Positions 19,075 to 26,954 of a stretch of 64,000 nt of DNA are shown here, piece after piece; within the stretch, counting starts at the first letter, position 1; each line of letters begins with the position of its first letter. The stretch is taken from the NCBI GenBank assembly GCA_045128275.1, contig JBGVRH010000074.1:9938-73937 (forward strand), in the 5' to 3' direction. Made by a program: the position numbers and the translations under genes. This DNA is from Eubacteriales bacterium. GTDB taxonomy: Bacteria; Bacillota; Clostridia; Oscillospirales; CAG-272. The notes below the pieces were generated by a model, which saw only the letters and a program-made list of their open reading frames with translations, had not been told where the DNA came from and did not search any database.

Positions 19075-19140
19075 CTATAGTGAAGATTTTTGACCATATC
19101 CATATAAATGAAACCATCACGAAAACGGAAGGATCTGACC

Positions 19141-22100
19141 ATGAAAAAATTTCTGCTATGGGCGTTGATCGCCACCATGACGATATCGCTGTTGAGCCTG
19201 GGTATCCTCTCGGCCGCCGCCGCGGAGACTCAGACGGGTAGCTGTGGAGATAGCGTCACCTGGACGCTGAATCCCGACACGGGTGAGCTGGTCATCTCGG
19301 GTCAAGGCCCCATGACCGACTACGCCATCACCAACATGACCCCCTGGATCGCCTCCTGCACGGCCATCACCTCGGTGAGGGTGGAGGAGGGCGTGACCTC
19401 CCTGGGTGCTTACGCGTTCCTGTATTGCAGCAACCTGGCCACCGTCTCTCTCCCCGAGAGCCTGACCTCCATCGGGGCTCACTCGTTCTCGAACTGCAGC
19501 AAGCTGACCGATCTGCAGATCCCCGCAGGTGTCCGTCAGATCGGCGCGGGCGCGTTCCAAAACTGCGCTTCTCTGACCGAGCTGGTCATCCCCGAGGGCG
19601 TGACCGAGATCCTCGGCTCCACCTTTTCGGGATGCTCCAAGCTGGCTCACGTAGAGCTCCCCGACAGCGTCACCTCCATCGGCAGCAGCGCCTTCGCAAG
19701 CTGCTCCGCTCTGACCGATATCCGGCTTCCCACGGGGCTGTCGGTTATCGATTCCAAGGCCTTCACCTACTGCTCCTCCCTGAAGACCATCACCCTCCCC
19801 GGCACCCTGACCGCTCTGGGCGACGGTGTCTTCACCAATTCCGCCCTGCAGAGAGCTCTCTTTGACGGTGCCCAGGACGAGTGGGACAACGTGACCGTTG
19901 GCGAAAGCAACGCCCTGCTGACCAGCGTTCTGCTGATTCACCCCGGTCATCTCTTCAATCAGGAGATCGTGGATCCCGCCTACCTGTGCACCCCCGCCGG
20001 CTGTGTCAGTGCCGCCTCCTACTACCGTACCTGCGTTTGCGGTGAGGTCGGTGACGAGACCTTCAGCCACGGCGAGCCCATCGGTCACACGGGAGGAACC
20101 GCCACCTGTCGGGATCAGGCGATTTGCGAGGTCTGCGGAGAGGCCTACGGCATTCTGGGCTCCCACGTGCCCAACAGAGAGGCCACCTGTACCGAGGGAT
20201 TTTCGTGCGCGATCTGCGAGATCCCCCTGAAGGATCCCCTGGGTCACGACTACGTCCCCACGGTGACGCCTCCCACCTGTACCGAGCCCGGCTTCACCGC
20301 CCACGTCTGCTCCCGCTGTAACGATACCTTCACCGACACCCCCACCGATCCCACGGGTCACACCGAGGGGGCCGCTCCCACCTGTACCGAGGATCAGATC
20401 TGTACCGTCTGTCACGAAATCCTGGCCGAGAAGCTGGGCCACAACCATATTCCCGAGATCACCCTGGCTCCCACCTGTACCGACTCGGGTATCCGTACCC
20501 ATACCTGCTCCCGCTGTAACGACACCTACGACGAAACCATAGATGCCACCGGCCACATTGAGAGCGATCCCGCTTCCTGCGAGACCGCCCAGACCTGTAC
20601 CGCCTGCGGTCTCCTGCTGGCTGACGCCCTGGGCCACGATTTCCACGCCGAGACCGTAGAGCCCACCTGCACGGCCAAAGGCTATACCGTCCACACCTGC
20701 TCCCGTTGCGCCTACACCTACCACGACAGCCTCGTGGATGCCAAGGGCCACGCCCCCGTTGGGGAGGCCACCTGTACCGAGCCTCAGCTCTGCGGAGCCT
20801 GCGGCGGGGTTCTGACCGAGGCTCTCGGCCACGATTACACAAGCACCGTCACCGAACCCACCTGCACCGAGCAGGGCTTCACCATTCATAGCTGTGACCG
20901 ATGCGGCCACGCCTATCGGGACACCTTCACCGATGCCGCAGGACACACCCCCGGCGAGGAAGCCACCTGTACCGTTTCCCAGCTCTGCACCGTTTGCGGT
21001 GAAGTGCTGACCGAGGCCTCGGGTCATAGCTACACCCAGGCCGTCACCGAGCCTTCCTGCACCGAGCAGGGCTTCACCACCCACACCTGCTCTGCCTGCG
21101 GCCACACCTATCGGGACACCTTTACCACCGCCTCGGGACACACCCCCGACGGAGAGGCCACCTGTGCCCACGCGCAGCTCTGCACCGTCTGCGGGGAGCT
21201 TCTGGCCGAGGCCCTCGGTCACGATTACACCCACACCGTCACCGCCCCCACCTGTACCGAGCAGGGCTTCACCACCCACACCTGCTCTGCCTGCGGGTAC
21301 ACCTACTTGGACACCTTCACCGATGCCAAGGCTCACGTCCCCGGTGACGCGGCAACCTGCTCCCGAGCCCAGGTCTGTACCGTCTGCGGTGAGGTTCTGA
21401 CCCCCGCCCAAGACCACGACTATACCCACATCATCATCGCACCTACCTGTACGACCAGAGGCTACACCACCCACACCTGCTCCCGCTGTAACCACACCTA
21501 TCTGGACGCCTTCACCGAAACCGCTCCCCACACCATCAGACAGGACGCAAGCTGTTATGAGCCTCAGTCCTGCTCGGTATGCGGCGGACTGATCAAGGAG
21601 GCCACGGGCCACGACTACCGCACCACCACCGTAGAGGCCACCTGCAACAGCCAGGGCTACGTCAAGCACGTCTGCATCCATTGCTCCGCCTCCTACCTGG
21701 ACAATTTCACCCCCGCCAAGGGACACACCCCCGGGGAAGCCGCCACCTGCACCCAGCCCCAGACCTGCACCGTCTGCCAGGGCATCCTGACTCCCGCCAA
21801 GGGACACAGTTTTGGCGCTGCCGTCACCGCTCCCACCTGTACCGAAAGCGGCTACACCACCCATGCCTGCGCCAACTGCGAGGCTACCTACGTGGATACC
21901 CCCACCGAGCCCGCGGGTCACGTCCCCGGCAAGGAGGCCTCCTGCCACGCGCCCCAGACCTGCACCGTCTGCCAAGCCATTCTGGCCGAGCGGCTGGAGC
22001 ATACTTACGAGGAAGCCCGCAACGAGCCCACCTGCACCATTGACGGTCAGATCCTGGACGTCTGCTCCCTCTGCGGCGACAGCTACGTCCGCGCCTTCAT

Positions 22101-22401
22101 CCCCGCCGTGGGGCACACCGTAGGTGATTGGGTGCTGGAGAACGCCCCCGACGTAGGCGAGCCCGGACGCAAGCATAAGTCCTGCGAGGTCTGCTCCGAG
22201 ATGGTGGAGCATGAGACCTTCTGGACGCCCGACGCTCCCGGCCCCTCGGACGAGTCCGGCTCTGTCTCCGAGACCGTAACCGAGCCTGAGACCGAGGAGG
22301 AAGAGGGCGGCTGCCGCATCACCGGCGGAAACATTGCCGTTATCGTCATCGTGATCATCGCGCTGGGCCTTCTGTGGTTCGTGGATATGCGACGCAGATA
22401 A
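19141..22401 (+). CDS. surface-anchored BspA-type leucine-rich-repeat protein with a Cys/His-rich tandem repeat array
   Basis: Trimmed to ATG 19141 (signal peptide MKKFLLWALIATMTISLLSLGILSAAAA). LRR units (VTSIG..AF..C..L). About 10 repeats of 65 aa. C-terminal TM anchor followed by RRR. Confidence 0.85.
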   Translation: MKKFLLWALIATMTISLLSLGILSAAAAETQTGSCGDSVTWTLNPDTGELVISGQGPMTDYAITNMTPWIASCTAITSVRVEEGVTSLGAYAFLYCSNLATVSLPESLTSIGAHSFSNCSKLTDLQIPAGVRQIGAGAFQNCASLTELVIPEGVTEILGSTFSGCSKLAHVELPDSVTSIGSSAFASCSALTDIRLPTGLSVIDSKAFTYCSSLKTITLPGTLTALGDGVFTNSALQRALFDGAQDEWDNVTVGESNALLTSVLLIHPGHLFNQEIVDPAYLCTPAGCVSAASYYRTCVCGEVGDETFSHGEPIGHTGGTATCRDQAICEVCGEAYGILGSHVPNREATCTEGFSCAICEIPLKDPLGHDYVPTVTPPTCTEPGFTAHVCSRCNDTFTDTPTDPTGHTEGAAPTCTEDQICTVCHEILAEKLGHNHIPEITLAPTCTDSGIRTHTCSRCNDTYDETIDATGHIESDPASCETAQTCTACGLLLADALGHDFHAETVEPTCTAKGYTVHTCSRCAYTYHDSLVDAKGHAPVGEATCTEPQLCGACGGVLTEALGHDYTSTVTEPTCTEQGFTIHSCDRCGHAYRDTFTDAAGHTPGEEATCTVSQLCTVCGEVLTEASGHSYTQAVTEPSCTEQGFTTHTCSACGHTYRDTFTTASGHTPDGEATCAHAQLCTVCGELLAEALGHDYTHTVTAPTCTEQGFTTHTCSACGYTYLDTFTDAKAHVPGDAATCSRAQVCTVCGEVLTPAQDHDYTHIIIAPTCTTRGYTTHTCSRCNHTYLDAFTETAPHTIRQDASCYEPQSCSVCGGLIKEATGHDYRTTTVEATCNSQGYVKHVCIHCSASYLDNFTPAKGHTPGEAATCTQPQTCTVCQGILTPAKGHSFGAAVTAPTCTESGYTTHACANCEATYVDTPTEPAGHVPGKEASCHAPQTCTVCQAILAERLEHTYEEARNEPTCTIDGQILDVCSLCGDSYVRAFIPAVGHTVGDWVLENAPDVGEPGRKHKSCEVCSEMVEHETFWTPDAPGPSDESGSVSETVTEPETEEEEGGCRITGGNIAVIVIVIIALGLLWFVDMRRR
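19987..22215 (+). repeat. in-frame tandem repeat, ~195-bp period (38+27 aa half-units)
   Basis: Half-unit consensus GHDYT..VT.PTCTEQGFTTHTCS.CG.TY.DTFTDA. / GHTPG..ATC...Q.CTVCGE.L.EAL. The central units are near-identical at DNA level. Confidence 0.85.
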
Positions 22402-22439
22402 AGAGCTCTACAGCAAACGCTCCCACAAAAAAGAAAAAT

Positions 22440-22474
22440 CAGGGTATGCTCTTCGGAGCGTACCCTGTTTTTTC
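22440..22474 (+). terminator. rho-independent terminator (bidirectional)
   Basis: CAGGGTATGCTC-TTCG-GAGCGTACCCTG followed by T6. Confidence 0.8.
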
Positions 22475-22610
22475 GTACCGATGGTGGGACTCTGAACCCC
22501 GCCGAGCATAGCGCCCGCTGTGCGGGGGGCATCAAGCTGCGCCGACAGAGGAAACGAGAGCCTCCTCTGGCAGCTTGAAGTGGTCTCTCGCCCATCAACA
22601 GTATCAAAAA
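22473..22610. repeat. direct repeat X1 (distal island boundary; degenerate tRNA-Leu 3'-end copy plus structured insert)
   Basis: Aligns with 25909-26035. Begins with tcGTaCCGaTGGTGGGACTCtGAACCC (compare the tRNA 3' end) and ends with CTCGCCCATCAACAG (compare the tRNA variable arm, 26101-14). Confidence 0.7.
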
Positions 22611-22646
22611 AGCAGGAACACTCCAAGGAGTATTCCTGCTTTTTTG
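22611..22646 (+). terminator. rho-independent terminator (bidirectional)
   Basis: AGCAGGAAcACTCC-AA-GGAGTaTTCCTGCT flanked by A6 and T6. Confidence 0.7.
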
Positions 22647-22771
22647 TGTAATAACCCGTTCGTTGATACAATGAACTAAGCCGACTCTTTCTTTTTTTAT
22701 AAAAATGACGCCCAAAACGAACTTTTTGTAAAAATACCCGCACAAAAATTCGCATTTTTACGAAAAAAGTA

Positions 22772-22799
22772 TTGATTTTTTTGCGCAATGTGGTATAAT
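22772..22799 (+). promoter_or_regulatory. strong sigmaA-type promoter driving the small-RNA candidate
   Basis: TTGATT (22772-77), 16 nt, TGgTATAAT (-10 at 22794-99). Confidence 0.6.
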
Positions 22800-22804
22800 A
22801 ATAA

Positions 22805-22877
22805 TGCTTACTGAAGGATTCTTATATCCTTTGAAAGTCGCCTGATAAGTGTTGGTAGCACTTATCGGGCTTTTTTA
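22805..22877 (+). ncRNA. candidate ~70-nt convergent antisense sRNA (Y1)
   Basis: Starts about 6 nt after the -10 element. Ends in a 12-bp stem (22840-51/22859-70, loop TTGGTAG) plus T6 (22871-76). Overlaps the stop codon and 3' end of the minus-strand operon. Confidence 0.45.
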
Positions 22878-23222
22878 GTCTTGCCCTAAAATCTCGGTAT
22901 TATCATCCATTATTACGTTTCTAAATGCAATTCCTTCGATGCAGGTGCTGTTAAGAGCGTCTTCCATATCAGCAAACTCTTCAAGCAAAATATACTTTCT
23001 TTTTGCTTTAGGATTGCTATCTTTGCGATAAAGACCGAAGAGAGCTTCTTTGCCATTGGGTAAAATAGTATCCTGCTTTTCATATATCGACCCTGTGTTA
23101 AATCTATATTCTGTGCCGTTATAAGAAAAATCCAAACCAAACCAATGACCATCCGAAGGTCCCCAAACACCGATATATTGGGATGTGAACTCTTCAAGGG
23201 AATTAAATTCGTTTTTTCTCAT
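22875..23222 (-). CDS. hypothetical 115-aa protein (island)
   Basis: The ATGA start overlaps the upstream stop. AT-rich codon usage like the rest of the island. No motif recognised. Confidence 0.7.
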   Translation of the reverse strand: MRKNEFNSLEEFTSQYIGVWGPSDGHWFGLDFSYNGTEYRFNTGSIYEKQDTILPNGKEALFGLYRKDSNPKAKRKYILLEEFADMEDALNSTCIEGIAFRNVIMDDNTEILGQD

Positions 23223-23608
23223 CGTAAATGAAACTCCTTCTTTATCATTTTTATCAAAGCAGACTCTTCTGCCGTCGGGGGAATACCAGGGTCGTTTTTG
23301 TTATGACTGAGATAAACATGACGATGAGGTTGCACGCCTTTATGGTCGTGTGCCAGGTCAATGCTTACCGCTTGTTTGTGAGCGTCGTCATAATATGCGA
23401 GATGCTTCAGCTCACCATTTTTAACAACTGCATAGATTCTTCCTGGGGTGTGAGAGTATTCGGGAGCTTTCACCGCATTAGAATCTTGAATGATAACTTT
23501 GACATTGGGATTGCTGCTTAAAGACCCTAATGACATATAGTGTTGCCCGCCTTGCACAAAACTAAAATTTCCGGTGTTGACGTCAACAAATGCACCACGA
23601 GAACCCAT
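23219..23608 (-). CDS. hypothetical 129-aa His-rich protein (island)
   Basis: TAATG junction with the upstream gene. DLAHDHKGVQPHRHVY. From memory it resembles a C-terminal module on some Firmicute phage MuF/SPP1-gp7-like proteins (unverified). Confidence 0.7.
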   Translation of the reverse strand: MGSRGAFVDVNTGNFSFVQGGQHYMSLGSLSSNPNVKVIIQDSNAVKAPEYSHTPGRIYAVVKNGELKHLAYYDDAHKQAVSIDLAHDHKGVQPHRHVYLSHNKNDPGIPPTAEESALIKMIKKEFHLR

Positions 23609-24294
23609 TATACCGCCTCCTTTATCGTGAACATCGAAGGTATCCCCTCGATCCTCAACTGTTTGTTTTCGACCGCAAAAGATTCGGTATACTTGAAATT
23701 CAGAAAAGTGCCTGTCATCCCCGGTATCATATTGCCAAACACAATTACAACCGGGGGCTCGATACGTGTCTTCATTTCGTTAAAACCGCGCAAAAAATCG
23801 TCTTGGTAGTCTGTGCATCCCAAGGTAGATATGATTACGGGAGTTTTACTTTCTATTGCACTAAAGCACATATCGTAGGTATCGGGCAATGCCCAGCCTA
23901 CTGTAGGGATGACGGACAATCCGTAATTTTGCCACGTGCGTCCCAACCATCTTCCCATATAGACATTGTGACGAATATCGTTAATATTCATTGTGGGATA
24001 AATGCTAAAGTCTGGGGTAGCTACCGCAGCATAGGTTTGCATCATTGGAATGCGTTTTAAAGGGTCATTCCATAAACGCAACAAATCTTTATCGTAGCTG
24101 AACATCATCAGCAACTTGTTCTCGTTGTCGGGCAACGATTTCATACACTTGAAATTACGAACCTCTAAGTTTTCATAATCCAAGTCACGAGTTAAACGCC
24201 GAATCACGGGAAAATCGTATTTGTCATATTCGCAATCCCCGATGATAGGACGAATAACCTTATACTTCTCAAAATCTGTGAGACCTTTAATCAT
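23608..24294 (-). CDS. DUF4417-like protein (island)
   Basis: RBS GAAAGGTAGG. Pattern ...FSYDKDLLRLWNDPLKRIPMMQTYAAVATPDFSIY...VYMGRWLGRTWQNYGLSVIPTVGW recalls DUF4417. Needs HMM confirmation. Confidence 0.7.
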   Translation of the reverse strand: MIKGLTDFEKYKVIRPIIGDCEYDKYDFPVIRRLTRDLDYENLEVRNFKCMKSLPDNENKLLMMFSYDKDLLRLWNDPLKRIPMMQTYAAVATPDFSIYPTMNINDIRHNVYMGRWLGRTWQNYGLSVIPTVGWALPDTYDMCFSAIESKTPVIISTLGCTDYQDDFLRGFNEMKTRIEPPVVIVFGNMIPGMTGTFLNFKYTESFAVENKQLRIEGIPSMFTIKEAV

Positions 24295-24365
24295 AGGTTA
24301 TTACCTACCTTTCTGCAAAATTTTCGTAAAATAGTAATAGTAGAGGTAGGGGATATGAATACAAC

Positions 24366-24449
24366 TGCTTACTGAAGAACTCTTATATCCCCTGAAATGT
24401 TCGGTTGTCCGAAAGGCACAAGTCACCGTTGGTAGCAGTTACTTATGCC
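24366..24449. repeat. Y2: second copy of the sRNA 5' box and loop motif
   Basis: 32-nt box 24366-97 matches 22805-36 with 4 transitions. GTTGGTAGCA (24429-38) sits in the loop of hairpin 24415-49. Confidence 0.7.
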
Positions 24450-24490
24450 GCATAAAAAATCATAAGCATCACCTCTTTCAAAATAATAAC

Positions 24491-25180
24491 TCACCTCGAT
24501 ATGATTCCTAAATCTTGAAGACGGTATTTTACTGGGTTGAAGTTTACTCCGAACTCTTGCAAAAGCATTGCAATCCATTTCTTCATATAATTTTTAAATT
24601 CGAGTGGCTGGCTCGGAATGTTTTTATAACGAGAAATTCTAAAAAATTCAGACCGAATCACATCGCGTGGCATTAAGATAGCAGCATCGAGATAATTCGT
24701 TTGACGCTCAATTATTTCAATTTCGCTCATAGAATTATTCCACCACGTAGAACCAAATTCATTTTTCTTACAAACGTGAAAAACATCTTTTTCAGCGTGT
24801 GTCCTAAAATATTCCTGGTCTTTAATCCAATGCGCACATTCGTGACCGACTATAAAATTCTCGCTTCCACGAGCAGTTTTTGCCTTTGAATCCAGAACAC
24901 GTTGATTGATAAGAATAGTGCCTTTAGGGAAAAATTCAGTAGCAAACATATCGCCTTTATGAAAAGTTCCATCGGGCCATATATACCAATAACCGTCATC
25001 GAAAAATGTGGCACCGAGAATGCTGTCGTCGGGAGAGATGTACTTCCATTCAACTTCACAGCCTAATGCCTCCAAAAGGTCATAACAATCCAAAGGGCTT
25101 GCAGAAGTAAGCCTTGCGGGAAAATATTCTTTGTTTATGGAATCGGCTAATTCTTCAAGTTTTTCCTTGGTATAGATCAT
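24491..25180 (-). CDS. ImmA/IrrE-family metallopeptidase (COG2856-like)
   Basis: HExxH motif (VGHECAHWI). Its start codon abuts the XRE stop (TAAATG). Confidence 0.85.
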   Translation of the reverse strand: MIYTKEKLEELADSINKEYFPARLTSASPLDCYDLLEALGCEVEWKYISPDDSILGATFFDDGYWYIWPDGTFHKGDMFATEFFPKGTILINQRVLDSKAKTARGSENFIVGHECAHWIKDQEYFRTHAEKDVFHVCKKNEFGSTWWNNSMSEIEIIERQTNYLDAAILMPRDVIRSEFFRISRYKNIPSQPLEFKNYMKKWIAMLLQEFGVNFNPVKYRLQDLGIISR

Positions 25181-25552
25181 TTAAGTACCTTCTGTTTCAT
25201 CCTTTGTCATAGATTCAATAATTTGCATCCACTCTTTTTCACCGAGATTAAGTTCTCTGGCTTTACGGAGTGCAATGCGAACGGAGCCATTGCTCATTAC
25301 ATATTCAGAAATGTCAGGAGCAACAGTATTGGTGCGAGCCTCGGCTGCGAGGTCGTTCATTAGGAGAACCTCTTCTTCTGTCAGTTCAAGCAGTTCTGCC
25401 AGCTTTGACATTTTCTCCGGTGAAGGAGAATTGCGTTTACCTTTTTCAATATCGCTTAAATAGGCGGGAGCGATATCCATCAGTTCTGCAAGCTTACGAA
25501 GATTCAACCCTTTTTCCGTGCGTTTTTGCTTAATAAATTCTCCGAAATTCAT
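25181..25552 (-). CDS. XRE-family HTH repressor (ImmR-like)
   Basis: AAGGAGG RBS. HTH LNLRKLAELMDIAPAYLSDIEKGKRNSPS. Confidence 0.85.
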   Translation of the reverse strand: MNFGEFIKQKRTEKGLNLRKLAELMDIAPAYLSDIEKGKRNSPSPEKMSKLAELLELTEEEVLLMNDLAAEARTNTVAPDISEYVMSNGSVRIALRKARELNLGEKEWMQIIESMTKDETEGT

Positions 25553-25578
25553 AGTCGTACCTCCTTAAAAAGCGAGAG

Positions 25579-25594
25579 CTGTTCGCCTGTTCGC
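25579..25594 (-). promoter_or_regulatory. tandem 8-mer (GCGAACAG x2 on the minus strand), candidate operator in the XRE leader
   Basis: CTGTTCGC CTGTTCGC on the plus strand, embedded in the AGAGC...GCTCT palindrome between the predicted TSS and the RBS. Confidence 0.35.
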
Positions 25595-25606
25595 TCTTTT
25601 GCTAAC

Positions 25607-25635
25607 AGTATATCATATTTTTAATGCAATGTCAA
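25607..25635 (-). promoter_or_regulatory. consensus sigmaA promoter of the island operon
   Basis: Minus strand TTGACA (25635-30), 17 nt, TATACT (25612-07). Confidence 0.65.
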
Positions 25636-25821
25636 TAAGAAATGCAAGAAATTATATAAATTTTCATTTCAAAATCAGTAATTTAACGAATAGCGGTCTT
25701 TTAACGATAGAAAGGCACTACACCTTGACGGGGAGTAGTGCTTTTCTGCATTTTGAGGTTTCCGAGACACAAGATATAGGCACCGCAAATACCGAAATGC
25801 ACCACAAAAGAGAAAAAGCCC

Positions 25822-25849
25822 TTGATTTACAAGTACTTTCGGCTAATAT
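25822..25849 (+). promoter_or_regulatory. possible sigmaA promoter reading into repeat X2
   Basis: TTGATT (25822-27), 16 nt, TAATAT (25844-49). Confidence 0.35.
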
Positions 25850-25908
25850 TTAACAATAAAAAGAAAACAGCAGGTCGATACGATTGTATCCATCTACTGT
25901 TCTTTATT

Positions 25909-26035
25909 TGGTGCCGGTGGTGGGACTCTGAACCCCGCCGAGCGGAGCTCGGCAACAAGCTGCGCCGACAAAGAGGAATTGAGAACTTTGGCTGGCAGCT
26001 TGAAGTGGTTTCTTCACCCATCAACAACATCAAAA
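25909..26035. repeat. direct repeat X2 (tRNA-proximal island boundary)
   Basis: The first 20 nt are identical to the tRNA-Leu gene's 3' end (26068-87), then a 1-nt insertion, then GAACCC. The internal stems differ from X1 but keep their positions. Confidence 0.75.
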
Positions 26036-26068
26036 TACGGGGCACCCCTTTGGGGTACCCCGTATTTT
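26035..26068 (-). terminator. rho-independent terminator of tRNA-Leu (bidirectional)
   Basis: ATACGGGGcACCCC-TTT-GGGGTaCCCCGTAT flanked by A4 and T4. Confidence 0.75.
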
Positions 26069-26154
26069 GGTGCCGGTGGTGGGACTCGAACCCACACGAT
26101 GTCGCCATCAACGGATTTTGAGTCCGTCACGTCTGCCAATTCCATCACACCGGC
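26068..26154 (-). tRNA. tRNA-Leu (anticodon CAA), class II with long variable arm, encoded CCA
   Basis: Reverse complement folds as GCCGGTG/CACCGGC acceptor, AATTGGCAGA D-loop, ACGGA-CUCAAAA-UCCGU anticodon arm, GAUG-GCGA-CAUC variable arm, and GTGGG-TTCGAGT-CCCAC T-arm. Confidence 0.95.
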
Positions 26155-26247
26155 GTATATTTCGCCGTCCTTGCGGACAACGGGTATATTGTATCATAGT
26201 TTCATGGAAAAGTCAAGTACCCCCGAGGAATTTCTCGGGGGCTTTTC

Positions 26248-26460
26248 TTAATTTTTGTCATCGGGCTTGTATGCAATGAGGTCGGCAATTCCACAGCCCA
26301 GAGCATCGCAGAATTTTTCCAGCAGGTAACTGTCGTAACGAACCACCTTGTTCTTGTAGTATTTATCCACCACCTGAAAACTGATGCCCGCCCGTTTGGC
26401 CAGCTCATAGCGCGTGATTTTATGATTGTCAAGATACTCTTTCACGGTCAACCGAATCAT
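26248..26460 (-). CDS. small XRE/Cro-type HTH regulator (70 aa)
   Basis: Trimmed to ATG 26460 after GAGAGGTGA. ITRYELAKRAGISFQVVDKYYKNK. Confidence 0.8.
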   Translation of the reverse strand: MIRLTVKEYLDNHKITRYELAKRAGISFQVVDKYYKNKVVRYDSYLLEKFCDALGCGIADLIAYKPDDKN

Positions 26461-26505
26461 GGTATCACCTCTCTTCGGTATATATTTTAATAAACATATA
26501 CCCTC

Positions 26506-26534
26506 TTGACAATTAGTGTGTTTGTATGTATAAT
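26506..26534 (+). promoter_or_regulatory. consensus sigmaA promoter for the SLOG-like gene
   Basis: TTGACA (26506-11), 17 nt, TATAAT (26529-34). The -10 lies within the ATGTA-TAAT-TACAT inverted repeat. Confidence 0.6.
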
Positions 26535-26573
26535 TACATATACATATAATCAAACGCAACAGGAGGCAATCAC

Positions 26574-26903
26574 ATGAAGCTTTTGATCGCAGGCTCCCGC
26601 TCCATTACGTCCTTTGATCTCTCCCCCCATATCCCCGCCGACGCGGATCTCATCATCACGGGAGGCGCCAAGGGGGTGGACACTCTGGCCGAGGCCTACG
26701 CCAAGGAGCGGGGAATCCCCACCGTGACCGTCAAGCCCTGCTACGAGAAATACGGACGCGCCGCGCCCATTCTGCGGGACGAGGAGATGGTGGATCTGGC
26801 CGACGCGGTGCTGGTGATCTGGGACGGCACTTCCCGAGGAAGCAAGCACACCGCCGCCTATGCCCGCAAGAAGGGCAAGCCCCTGACGGTGGTGACGGTA
26901 TGA
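26574..26903 (+). CDS. SLOG-superfamily protein (DUF2493-like)
   Basis: AGGAGG RBS. LLIAGSRS...IITGGAKGVDTLAEAYAKERGIP...APILRDEEMV pattern. Confidence 0.7.
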   Translation: MKLLIAGSRSITSFDLSPHIPADADLIITGGAKGVDTLAEAYAKERGIPTVTVKPCYEKYGRAAPILRDEEMVDLADAVLVIWDGTSRGSKHTAAYARKKGKPLTVVTV

Positions 26904-26954
26904 AGCAGACGCAATCAAAAAAGGTACTCTCCCACGGGAAAGTACCTTTGTTTT

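Follow-up and report, generated by a model that had tools for sequence, protein, structure and literature searches.

A covarying repeat family at the 3' ends of tRNA-Leu(CAA) and tRNA-Thr(CGU) genes of uncultured gut Clostridia: possible units of a non-coding recombination module

Introduction

The 3' ends of tRNA genes are classic landing sites of genomic islands, and the repeats found there are usually treated as short inert scars. The locus described here raises the question of whether such a repeat can be something else. We analysed a stretch of 64,000 nucleotides from an Eubacteriales bacterium (hereafter the window), in which two copies of a repeat, X1 and X2, lie on the 3' side of the sole tRNA gene, tRNA-Leu(CAA). 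[quoted passage not shown] We asked whether X2 is the gene of such an RNA, an integration scar or a unit of another kind. The reading that we tentatively prefer places X2, as one unit, in a family of recombination modules, or mini-cassettes, that are non-coding and non-autonomous and are located at the 3' ends of tRNA-Leu(CAA) and tRNA-Thr(CGU) genes.

Results

The tRNA-Leu(CAA) Locus of the Window

The elements that make up the array are the following:

22440-22467: T0, terminator of an LRR gene, abutting X1 (terminator scan)
22473-22603, plus strand: X1, the tRNA-distal copy of X (covariance-model score of 105.9 bits)
22607-22647: T1', terminator hairpin of the X1 unit, homologous to the hairpin found between units in locus L061
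25909-26029, plus strand: X2, the copy of X nearer to tRNA-Leu(CAA), homologous to X1
25909-25928, plus strand: IR-L ("acc"), the 20 nt that end the tRNA gene, repeated directly and without mismatch (seen as their complement)
26013-26032, plus strand: IR-R, a degenerate copy of the tRNA 3' end in inverted orientation (TTCACCCATCAACAACATCA), able to pair with IR-L (duplex analysis)
26031-26069, both strands: T3, two-way intrinsic terminator hairpin of 18 pairs between the tRNA and X2 (terminator scan)
26068-26154, minus strand: tRNA-Leu(CAA) gene, anchor of the array (ARAGORN; Rfam tRNA model, 53.7 bits)

The 20-mer TGGTGCCGGTGGTGGGACTC (plus strand), located at the tRNA 3' end (26068-26087), occurs again without a change at 25909-25928, so that X2 indeed begins with the complement of the last 20 nt of tRNA-Leu(CAA), as had been noticed. 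A degenerate third copy of the tRNA end, with 3 mismatches, was found at 22473-22491, in X1, where it has decayed to TCGTACCGATGGT; the tRNA-end search pattern thus gave 3 matches against 0.01 expected. From both upstream copies, about 110 nt of homologous sequence extend rightward. X1 and X2 are homologous, with about 80-87% identity (81-87% in the shared blocks), and their stems lie at equivalent positions, in agreement with the initial annotation. The hairpin and T-run that it had placed near 26035-26068 correspond to T3, a strong terminator in both directions (-32.2 kcal/mol on the plus strand and -33.4 kcal/mol on the minus strand). X2 and T3 together form a separate 159-bp unit without cargo.

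The palindrome of T3 (26028-26072) continues past the hairpin and the A/T runs into CATCA/TGGTG, and the end of IR-R therefore has two possible pairing partners, the tRNA-end copy of its own unit or, across T3, the real tRNA 3' end. To the left of the array, positions 19108-22401 (plus strand) encode a 1097-aa BspA-type LRR_5 protein with seven Cys-rich tandem repeats of 195 nt, whose length differs between strains (1021, 1030, 1065, 1086, 1087 and 1097 aa). Upstream of tRNA-Leu(CAA), in the window (26248-26918) as well as in L032, L061 and L065, we found a 70-aa HTH_26 regulator and a 109-116-aa YAcAr/cpYpsA-like protein, both of which keep this position across X-carrying species; distant homologues of the regulator (P0184, P0231) had neither a tRNA nor X alongside.

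X Is a Family Linked to Two tRNA Genes

An exact-pattern scan of one genome per species gave ten loci, all from uncultured Clostridia/Eubacteriales and originating from ruminant-gut and other metagenome assemblies. The tRNA partner was tRNA-Leu(CAA) in seven of them and tRNA-Thr(CGU) in L005 and L006; L002 (tRNA-Leu) and L005 (tRNA-Thr) belong to one metagenome-assembled genome, which carries X at two tRNAs. A covariance model was built from 14 copies, and loci reached through neighbouring proteins were then added. Together, the pattern, covariance-model and protein-neighbour loci amount to 45 copies, 36 of them distinct, in related uncultured gut Clostridia. A pattern scan of metagenomes returned two true copies of X together with three chance matches.

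All 45 copies share one orientation relative to the tRNA gene, which led us to reject an invertible promoter switch. Wherever the contig reaches the tRNA, the gap between it and X consists only of a terminator hairpin or of further X units. At its end away from the tRNA, X carries a copy of the adjoining tRNA's 3' end; in L005 this left end corresponds to tRNA-Thr instead of tRNA-Leu. The tRNA-end copy decays in tRNA-distal units, such as X1, L011, L001, L004, L006 and L034, and an antisense action on the tRNA is therefore unlikely as a selected function; judging from these sequences, the complementarity of X to the tRNA would be a by-product of the origin of the unit.

In L032-L038, a heptamer AGTGAAN present in about 3-7 copies, variable between strains, lies to the left of the tRNA-distal X and replaces the outer part of the tRNA-end copy. 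The T-loop of tRNA-Leu(CAA) itself differs within one species (GGGATTTGAACCC versus GGGACTCGAACCC; L032, 3356-3442, and L037, 1128-1214), the variant form being devoid of the GAGTCCC segment common to the X core.

The Rfam comparison proposed in the initial annotation matched no family to X: Rfam 15 at gathering score recovered the tRNA gene only, with no match on X1 or X2, and nothing credible appeared on either copy at E <= 10 over 22300-26300. X was absent from phage and plasmid collections (blastn) and from viral contigs (two exact-pattern scans).

The Structure of X Is Conserved by Covariation

The modelled structure comprises 23 pairs in 5 helices, of which the following are named below:

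25922-25943, plus strand: core GGGACTCTGAACCCCGCCGAGC, like a tRNA T-arm with one extra base, including hairpin H1 (GGG/CCC)
25937-25953, plus strand: hairpin H2, GCCGAGC-GGA-GCTCGGC, with covarying pair 34/41
25956-26002, plus strand: hairpin H3, 8-bp stem CAAGCTGC/GCAGCTTG with a variable purine-rich tip and two covarying pairs
26005-26017, plus strand: hairpin H4, GTGG-TTTCT-TCAC, with 96.5% of cells paired, competing with the closing helix

Over the 36 distinct copies, 98.5% of the cells of this model are paired; sliding the 3' partners as a control lowers this proportion to 31-48%. The alignment of homologues showed that H2 and H3 covary. Over the whole model, cells changed on both sides numbered 28, compared with 7.3 in shuffles, and none of 500 shuffles reached 28. 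This covariation beyond the controls is that of a structured non-coding element, and the earlier suggestion that X is more than an att scar is thus supported. Pair 34/41 of H2 is GC in 29 copies and AU in 6, the switch being also observed within one species, and in X1 and L010 the tip of H2 is swapped for a different hairpin, CCCGC-TGT-GCGGG. In H3, pair 68/126 is AU in 17 copies and GC in 17, and pair 69/125 is CG in 32 and UA in 3; the TTGAAG that follows is invariant. Pair 133/143 of H4 is UA in 27 copies, CG in 2 and UG in 4. The 22-nt core varies at a single position, number 21, where 6 distinct copies have A and the others G; most of the copies compared come from loci found with a pattern from the core, but those reached through protein neighbours carry it too. 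Within species, changes fall in loops or are compensatory.

These observations bear on the possibility that X is an inert scar, a decayed att site or tRNA-duplication remnant amplified by unequal crossing-over and devoid of function. The decay of the flanking tRNA-end copies would fit such a scar, as would the perfect tandem duplication in L061 (see below), which shows plain unequal exchange. However, the 22-nt core is invariant and the hairpins stay paired through double changes between genomes with only about 76% backbone identity, within-species changes avoid disrupting the stems, and X1 and L010 exchanged the H2 tip for another hairpin instead of losing H2. We thus consider this explanation quite improbable.

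Two other candidates were rejected. X is not coding, the ORF at 25979-26251 being spurious and running antisense through the tRNA, and the 1-nt indels observed in H4 among copies break any frame. A hammerhead or self-cleaving core (CUGA...GAA), suspected by eye, has no G8/A9, and Rfam returned nothing for it.

Another possibility is that X is a tRNA-like RNA of the tRNA strand, arising from transcription that reads through T3 and matured at a 3' end resembling that of a tRNA. On the minus strand, D-like, long anticodon-like, variable-arm-like and T-like hairpins succeed each other in tRNA order, which fits a class II tRNA, and the 3' end corresponds to a T-arm, an acceptor and CCA. The X covariance model weakly matches antisense tRNA genes (12 bits), three mismatches of H3 turn into G-U pairs on the minus strand, and ARAGORN under relaxed settings calls the minus strand of X1 an intron-containing tRNA. 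That call, obtained at an 80% threshold, nevertheless mis-assigns the arms; default ARAGORN finds nothing and the Rfam tRNA model (RF00005) has no match on X even at E <= 10, so that we rejected a tRNA or tmRNA identity. Moreover, the 5' acceptor strand is missing, H4 and the closing helix contain A-C mismatches on the minus strand, a strong terminator separates the tRNA from X, and the CCA end decays in distal copies. What X has in common with tRNA and tmRNA is thus a hairpin resembling a T-arm and an acceptor/CCA-like end taken over from the neighbouring tRNA; it differs from them by a T-loop of 8 nt and the lack of an anticodon loop, and a processed tRNA-like RNA appears improbable.

The Two Ends of X Could Pair With Each Other

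The initial annotation had proposed a closing helix that works only on the plus strand, through G-U pairs. A helix GGTGG/TCACC with G-U pairs can indeed be drawn on this strand, with 93% of cells paired, but it competes with H4, in which the proportion is higher. When the closing helix is extended, the "spacer" before T3 is seen to be IR-R, the degenerate inverted copy of the tRNA 3' end. The pairing of IR-L with IR-R has energies of -9 to -26 kcal/mol, the clearest case being L061 (TTCACCCATCAATCGGCATCA versus CCCACCACCGGCACCA, -25.7 to -29.9 kcal/mol). IR-R ends with ATCA or ACCA in most tRNA-Leu units and with TTCCA beside tRNA-Thr. It also follows the cognate tRNA, the Leu end pairing better in 11 of 12 Leu-type copies (with one tie) and the Thr end in all three Thr-type copies. 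The helix predicted from these pairings can be regarded as suggestive, because RNAalifold did not recover it, nor the closing helix, on the alignments on which it was run.

Strand and Transcription Signals

Comparison of G-U with A-C pairs and RNAalifold energies favoured no single strand, the latter being equal (-25.5 versus -26.0). The G-U pairs point both ways: in H4, three independent cells, as well as a loop-closing G-T, pair on the plus strand only, and in H3, three cells pair on the minus strand only. The IR-L/IR-R duplex is more stable on the plus strand in 11 of 15 copies. Single-sequence folds of X have modest z-scores (+0.4 to -2.8), and the unit 25856-26072 folds with a z-score of -6.9. 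Every locus has a terminator hairpin on the tRNA side of X, often with a second one adjoining the far end. By eye, no promoter-like sequence was evident before X in other genomes, on either strand; the promoter scan itself covered the window alone. The terminator of X is thus conserved, without an evident promoter, and X2 is probably not a self-contained small-RNA gene.

These signals are those on which a plus-strand small RNA has to be judged. In such an RNA, IR-L and IR-R would close a three-way junction and T3 would end the transcript; it would act in trans, or as a mimic or sponge of tRNA ends, and would be a recombination hot spot only through its tRNA-like sequence. The covariation of stems around invariant loop and junction sequences, the H4 pairs formed only as G-U on the plus strand, the stability of the IR-L/IR-R duplex on this strand and the low z-score of the unit are all in line with this possibility, and the terminators being two-way, a plus-strand transcript may need stopping. 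Conversely, no promoter is evident upstream in any species, the T-run of a terminator often abuts the 5' end, and the only promoter candidate is island-specific and at chance level. The minus-only cells of H3 and the equal RNAalifold energies also argue against it, and the excess of plus-only wobbles could reflect C-to-T decay of a C-rich repeat. We thus regard a plus-strand RNA as unlikely, but as a rival to be kept in mind.

The Island Is Separate From X

Between the two X units, the window contains the following elements:

22649-25903, genes on the minus strand: low-GC island of 3.3 kb, between T1' and the tRNA-end copy of X2, absent from L011 and L061-L064
25822-25849, plus strand: promoter-like hexamers TTGATT-16-TAATAT, inside the island, agreeing with the consensus at 8 of 12 positions
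25866-25904, both strands: T2, hairpin at the right end of the island (-14.9 kcal/mol, z -3.4 on the plus strand; -18.1 kcal/mol, z -5.4 on the minus strand)

The island has a GC content of 0.35-0.44, compared with about 0.62 in its surroundings, and its genes, all on the minus strand, encode an XRE-type HTH protein, an ImmA-like protein, a DUF4417 protein and two small proteins (Pfam). Alignment to L061/L063 sets its bounds exactly at 22649-25903, from the T-run of T1' to the tRNA-end copy of X2, and in strain L022 T2 lies directly 3' of the tRNA gene. From this alignment and this junction, T2 and the hexamers are therefore island sequence, separate from X. The extended hairpin described in the initial annotation is thus well formed, but neither it nor the promoter belongs to the X unit, and X itself is not encoded by the island, since island-free genomes have X beside the tRNA.

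We can now evaluate the scenario in which transcription from an island promoter at 25822 crosses X2 and yields a structured RNA antisense to the 3' end of tRNA-Leu. The hexamers exist and the first 20 nt of X2 are perfectly complementary to the tRNA 3' end. However, TTGATT-16-TAATAT was below the threshold of the promoter scan, which did not list it, and 21 equally good sites (13 on the plus strand and 8 on the minus strand) occur within the 3.3-kb island; the T2 hairpin, with its T-run, stands between this promoter and X2; X occurs without the island; and the complementarity is lost in many copies. We consider this very improbable, and less likely than the plus-strand small RNA, the minus-strand tRNA-like RNA and the inert scar.

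In other Clostridia (L026-L031), the five-gene module of the island (22875-25552; HTH, ImmA-like, DUF4417, 129 aa and 115 aa) is found again as a compact island, located at unrelated places in the chromosome and without X, an integrase or a tRNA gene within 8 kb; in L029, a tRNA-Leu lies about 8.8 kb away. X was sought at the ends of these relatives and was absent. The cargo is therefore not tied to X: the island may have entered the tRNA-like 3' end through a route of its own, and is best read as cargo lodged between units X1 and X2.

The island also contains, on the minus strand, a direct repeat of about 80 nt (22795-22875 and 24360-24455), ATAAGT..GCTACCAAC..hairpin..TTTCA..GGATATAAGA.T.CTTCAGTAAGCA, which is kept in related islands, with one copy just upstream of the DUF4417 gene and the other just downstream of the 115-aa gene. 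A plus-strand promoter-like site at 22772-22799 (10/12, with a TG extension), followed by a terminator at 22840-22870, would give an antisense RNA over the downstream copy. Another low-GC gene (0.37), encoding a 353-aa HTH protein, adjoins the tRNA-Thr-linked X in L005 (6535-7596); it lies beside half of a terminator-like repeat and looks like a small cargo insertion at an X array.

X Units Are Gained, Lost and Exchanged

The locus of the window exists in three states. In L011, the LRR-gene flank is 94% identical to that of the window and the tRNA-end copy shows the same decay as in X1; one X, whose body resembles that of X2, is followed by a terminator and then the tRNA, with no island. In L022, from the species of the window, the island is present and the 159-bp X2 unit is missing, the junction falling inside a 28-nt tRNA-end repeat. 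The window has both the island and the X2 unit.

In the sister lineage L061/L063, which has no island, two X units of 163 nt stand in perfect tandem duplication; L062 and L064 have one. Unequal exchange therefore clearly operates at the repeated tRNA end. In the species carrying P0152, one or two X units follow the tRNA, perhaps more where assembly gaps interrupt, and the order and combination of X and terminator variants differ between strains. L039 shares only 76-77% identity with L011 and L065 over the chromosomal backbone, but its tRNA-distal unit is 94% identical to the unit that lies next to the tRNA in these two genomes; this identity at a different array position suggests that X units have been exchanged between lineages.

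As in att-flanked elements at tRNA genes, we thus found a distal direct repeat and presence/absence junctions within this repeat. No integrase lay within or next to the element: Pfam detected no integrase domain in the island or its neighbours, nor did the gene tables of X-carrying loci contain one.

Discussion

X as a Recombination Module

We tentatively interpret X2 as a unit of a recombination module. Each unit spans about 160 bp and comprises the repeated tRNA end (~20 nt), an invariant T-arm-like core, two covarying hairpins, IR-R and a two-way terminator. Units would be gained, lost and reshuffled through recombination at the repeated tRNA end, the likely agent being a tRNA-targeting tyrosine recombinase provided in trans, together with unequal homologous exchange, and the common GAGTCCC segment with the acceptor end being the likely region of exchange. 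The covariation of the hairpins suggests that X is recognised as a folded single strand; its hairpins would most likely form in a strand, either RNA or DNA, recognised by the recombination machinery.

Several lines of evidence argue for this interpretation: the location of all 45 copies by a tRNA gene, of two types, wherever the contig extends that far; the three states of the locus in L011, L022 and the window; the polymorphism of arrays between strains and the unit that species seem to have exchanged; the covariation of H2 and H3, the invariant core and the tracking of the cognate tRNA by IR-R; and the absence of an obvious transcription unit around X. There is also precedent in Firmicutes, where elements are known to accumulate in tandem at the 3' ends of tRNA genes and where the att-flanked cis-mobilizable elements (CIMEs) occur without an integrase (PMC5704250). 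On the other hand, neither gene tables nor domain searches revealed an integrase beside any X copy, a unit of 159 bp would make a small circular intermediate, ill suited to recombination, and RecA-dependent unequal exchange alone could explain the changes in copy number. Double-stranded att arms are classically not expected to show hairpin covariation. The life of relatives of the five-gene module elsewhere, without X or a tRNA, and the absence of X from phage, plasmid and viral collections also weigh against it.

Comparison With Known Systems

As in the ICESt1/ICESt3 family and in the accretion and CIMEs at tRNA-Lys of S. agalactiae (PMC5704250), X units are bounded by direct repeats of a tRNA 3' end, are devoid of an integrase, form tandem arrays by an intact tRNA and are present or absent according to the strain, with junctions inside the repeat. 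They differ from these elements in that the module includes about 120 nt of conserved covarying hairpins, beyond a mere core repeat, and in that units are most commonly cargo-less and only ~160 bp long. The loci examined revealed neither a partner integrative element nor an integrase.

X also resembles the attP(+) site of CTXphi and elements exploiting the Xer recombinases of the host (PMC3442271), which likewise have no recombinase of their own and form arrays at one chromosomal site; its inverted target-like sequences, IR-L and IR-R, are separated by about 90 nt and might form a fold-back within a single strand. In contrast to CTXphi, the target is a tRNA gene and not dif, the putative crossover region (GAGTCCC, T-loop) is not clearly included in the folded IR-L/IR-R stem, and X gave no sign of a single-stranded phage or of Xer sites.

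With integron cassette arrays, X shares a folded site at one cassette end, conserved in structure and variable in sequence, variable arrays beside a fixed site and the existence of empty cassettes. Unlike attC, which forms one imperfect hairpin, X has several hairpins and a 22-nt invariant core, and no IntI gene is nearby; we rejected an attC identity, the R'' (RYYYAAC) and R' (GTTRRRY) boxes being absent from both strands of X1 and X2.

A more speculative possibility, which we find doubtful, is that X represents a new kind of folded single-strand site, in which the stem is built from a duplicated tRNA 3' end and its co-evolving inverted copy, and a tRNA-targeting counterpart of attC and attP(+). 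The units would then be integrase-less mini-cassettes of ~160 bp, arrayed at tRNA T-loops and able to take up cargo, for example the 3.3-kb island.

Significance

A conserved, covarying repeat of about 120 nt with an invariant core, present at two tRNAs in arrays that vary between strains, is unlike a short inert scar. If X were a recognition structure for a recombinase acting in trans, it would be a new minimal mobile unit and would explain the coming and going of integrase-less islands in gut Clostridia. If it were instead an RNA, X would represent a family so far without annotation and in close linkage with tRNA genes. In both cases, it is a concrete family missing from Rfam.
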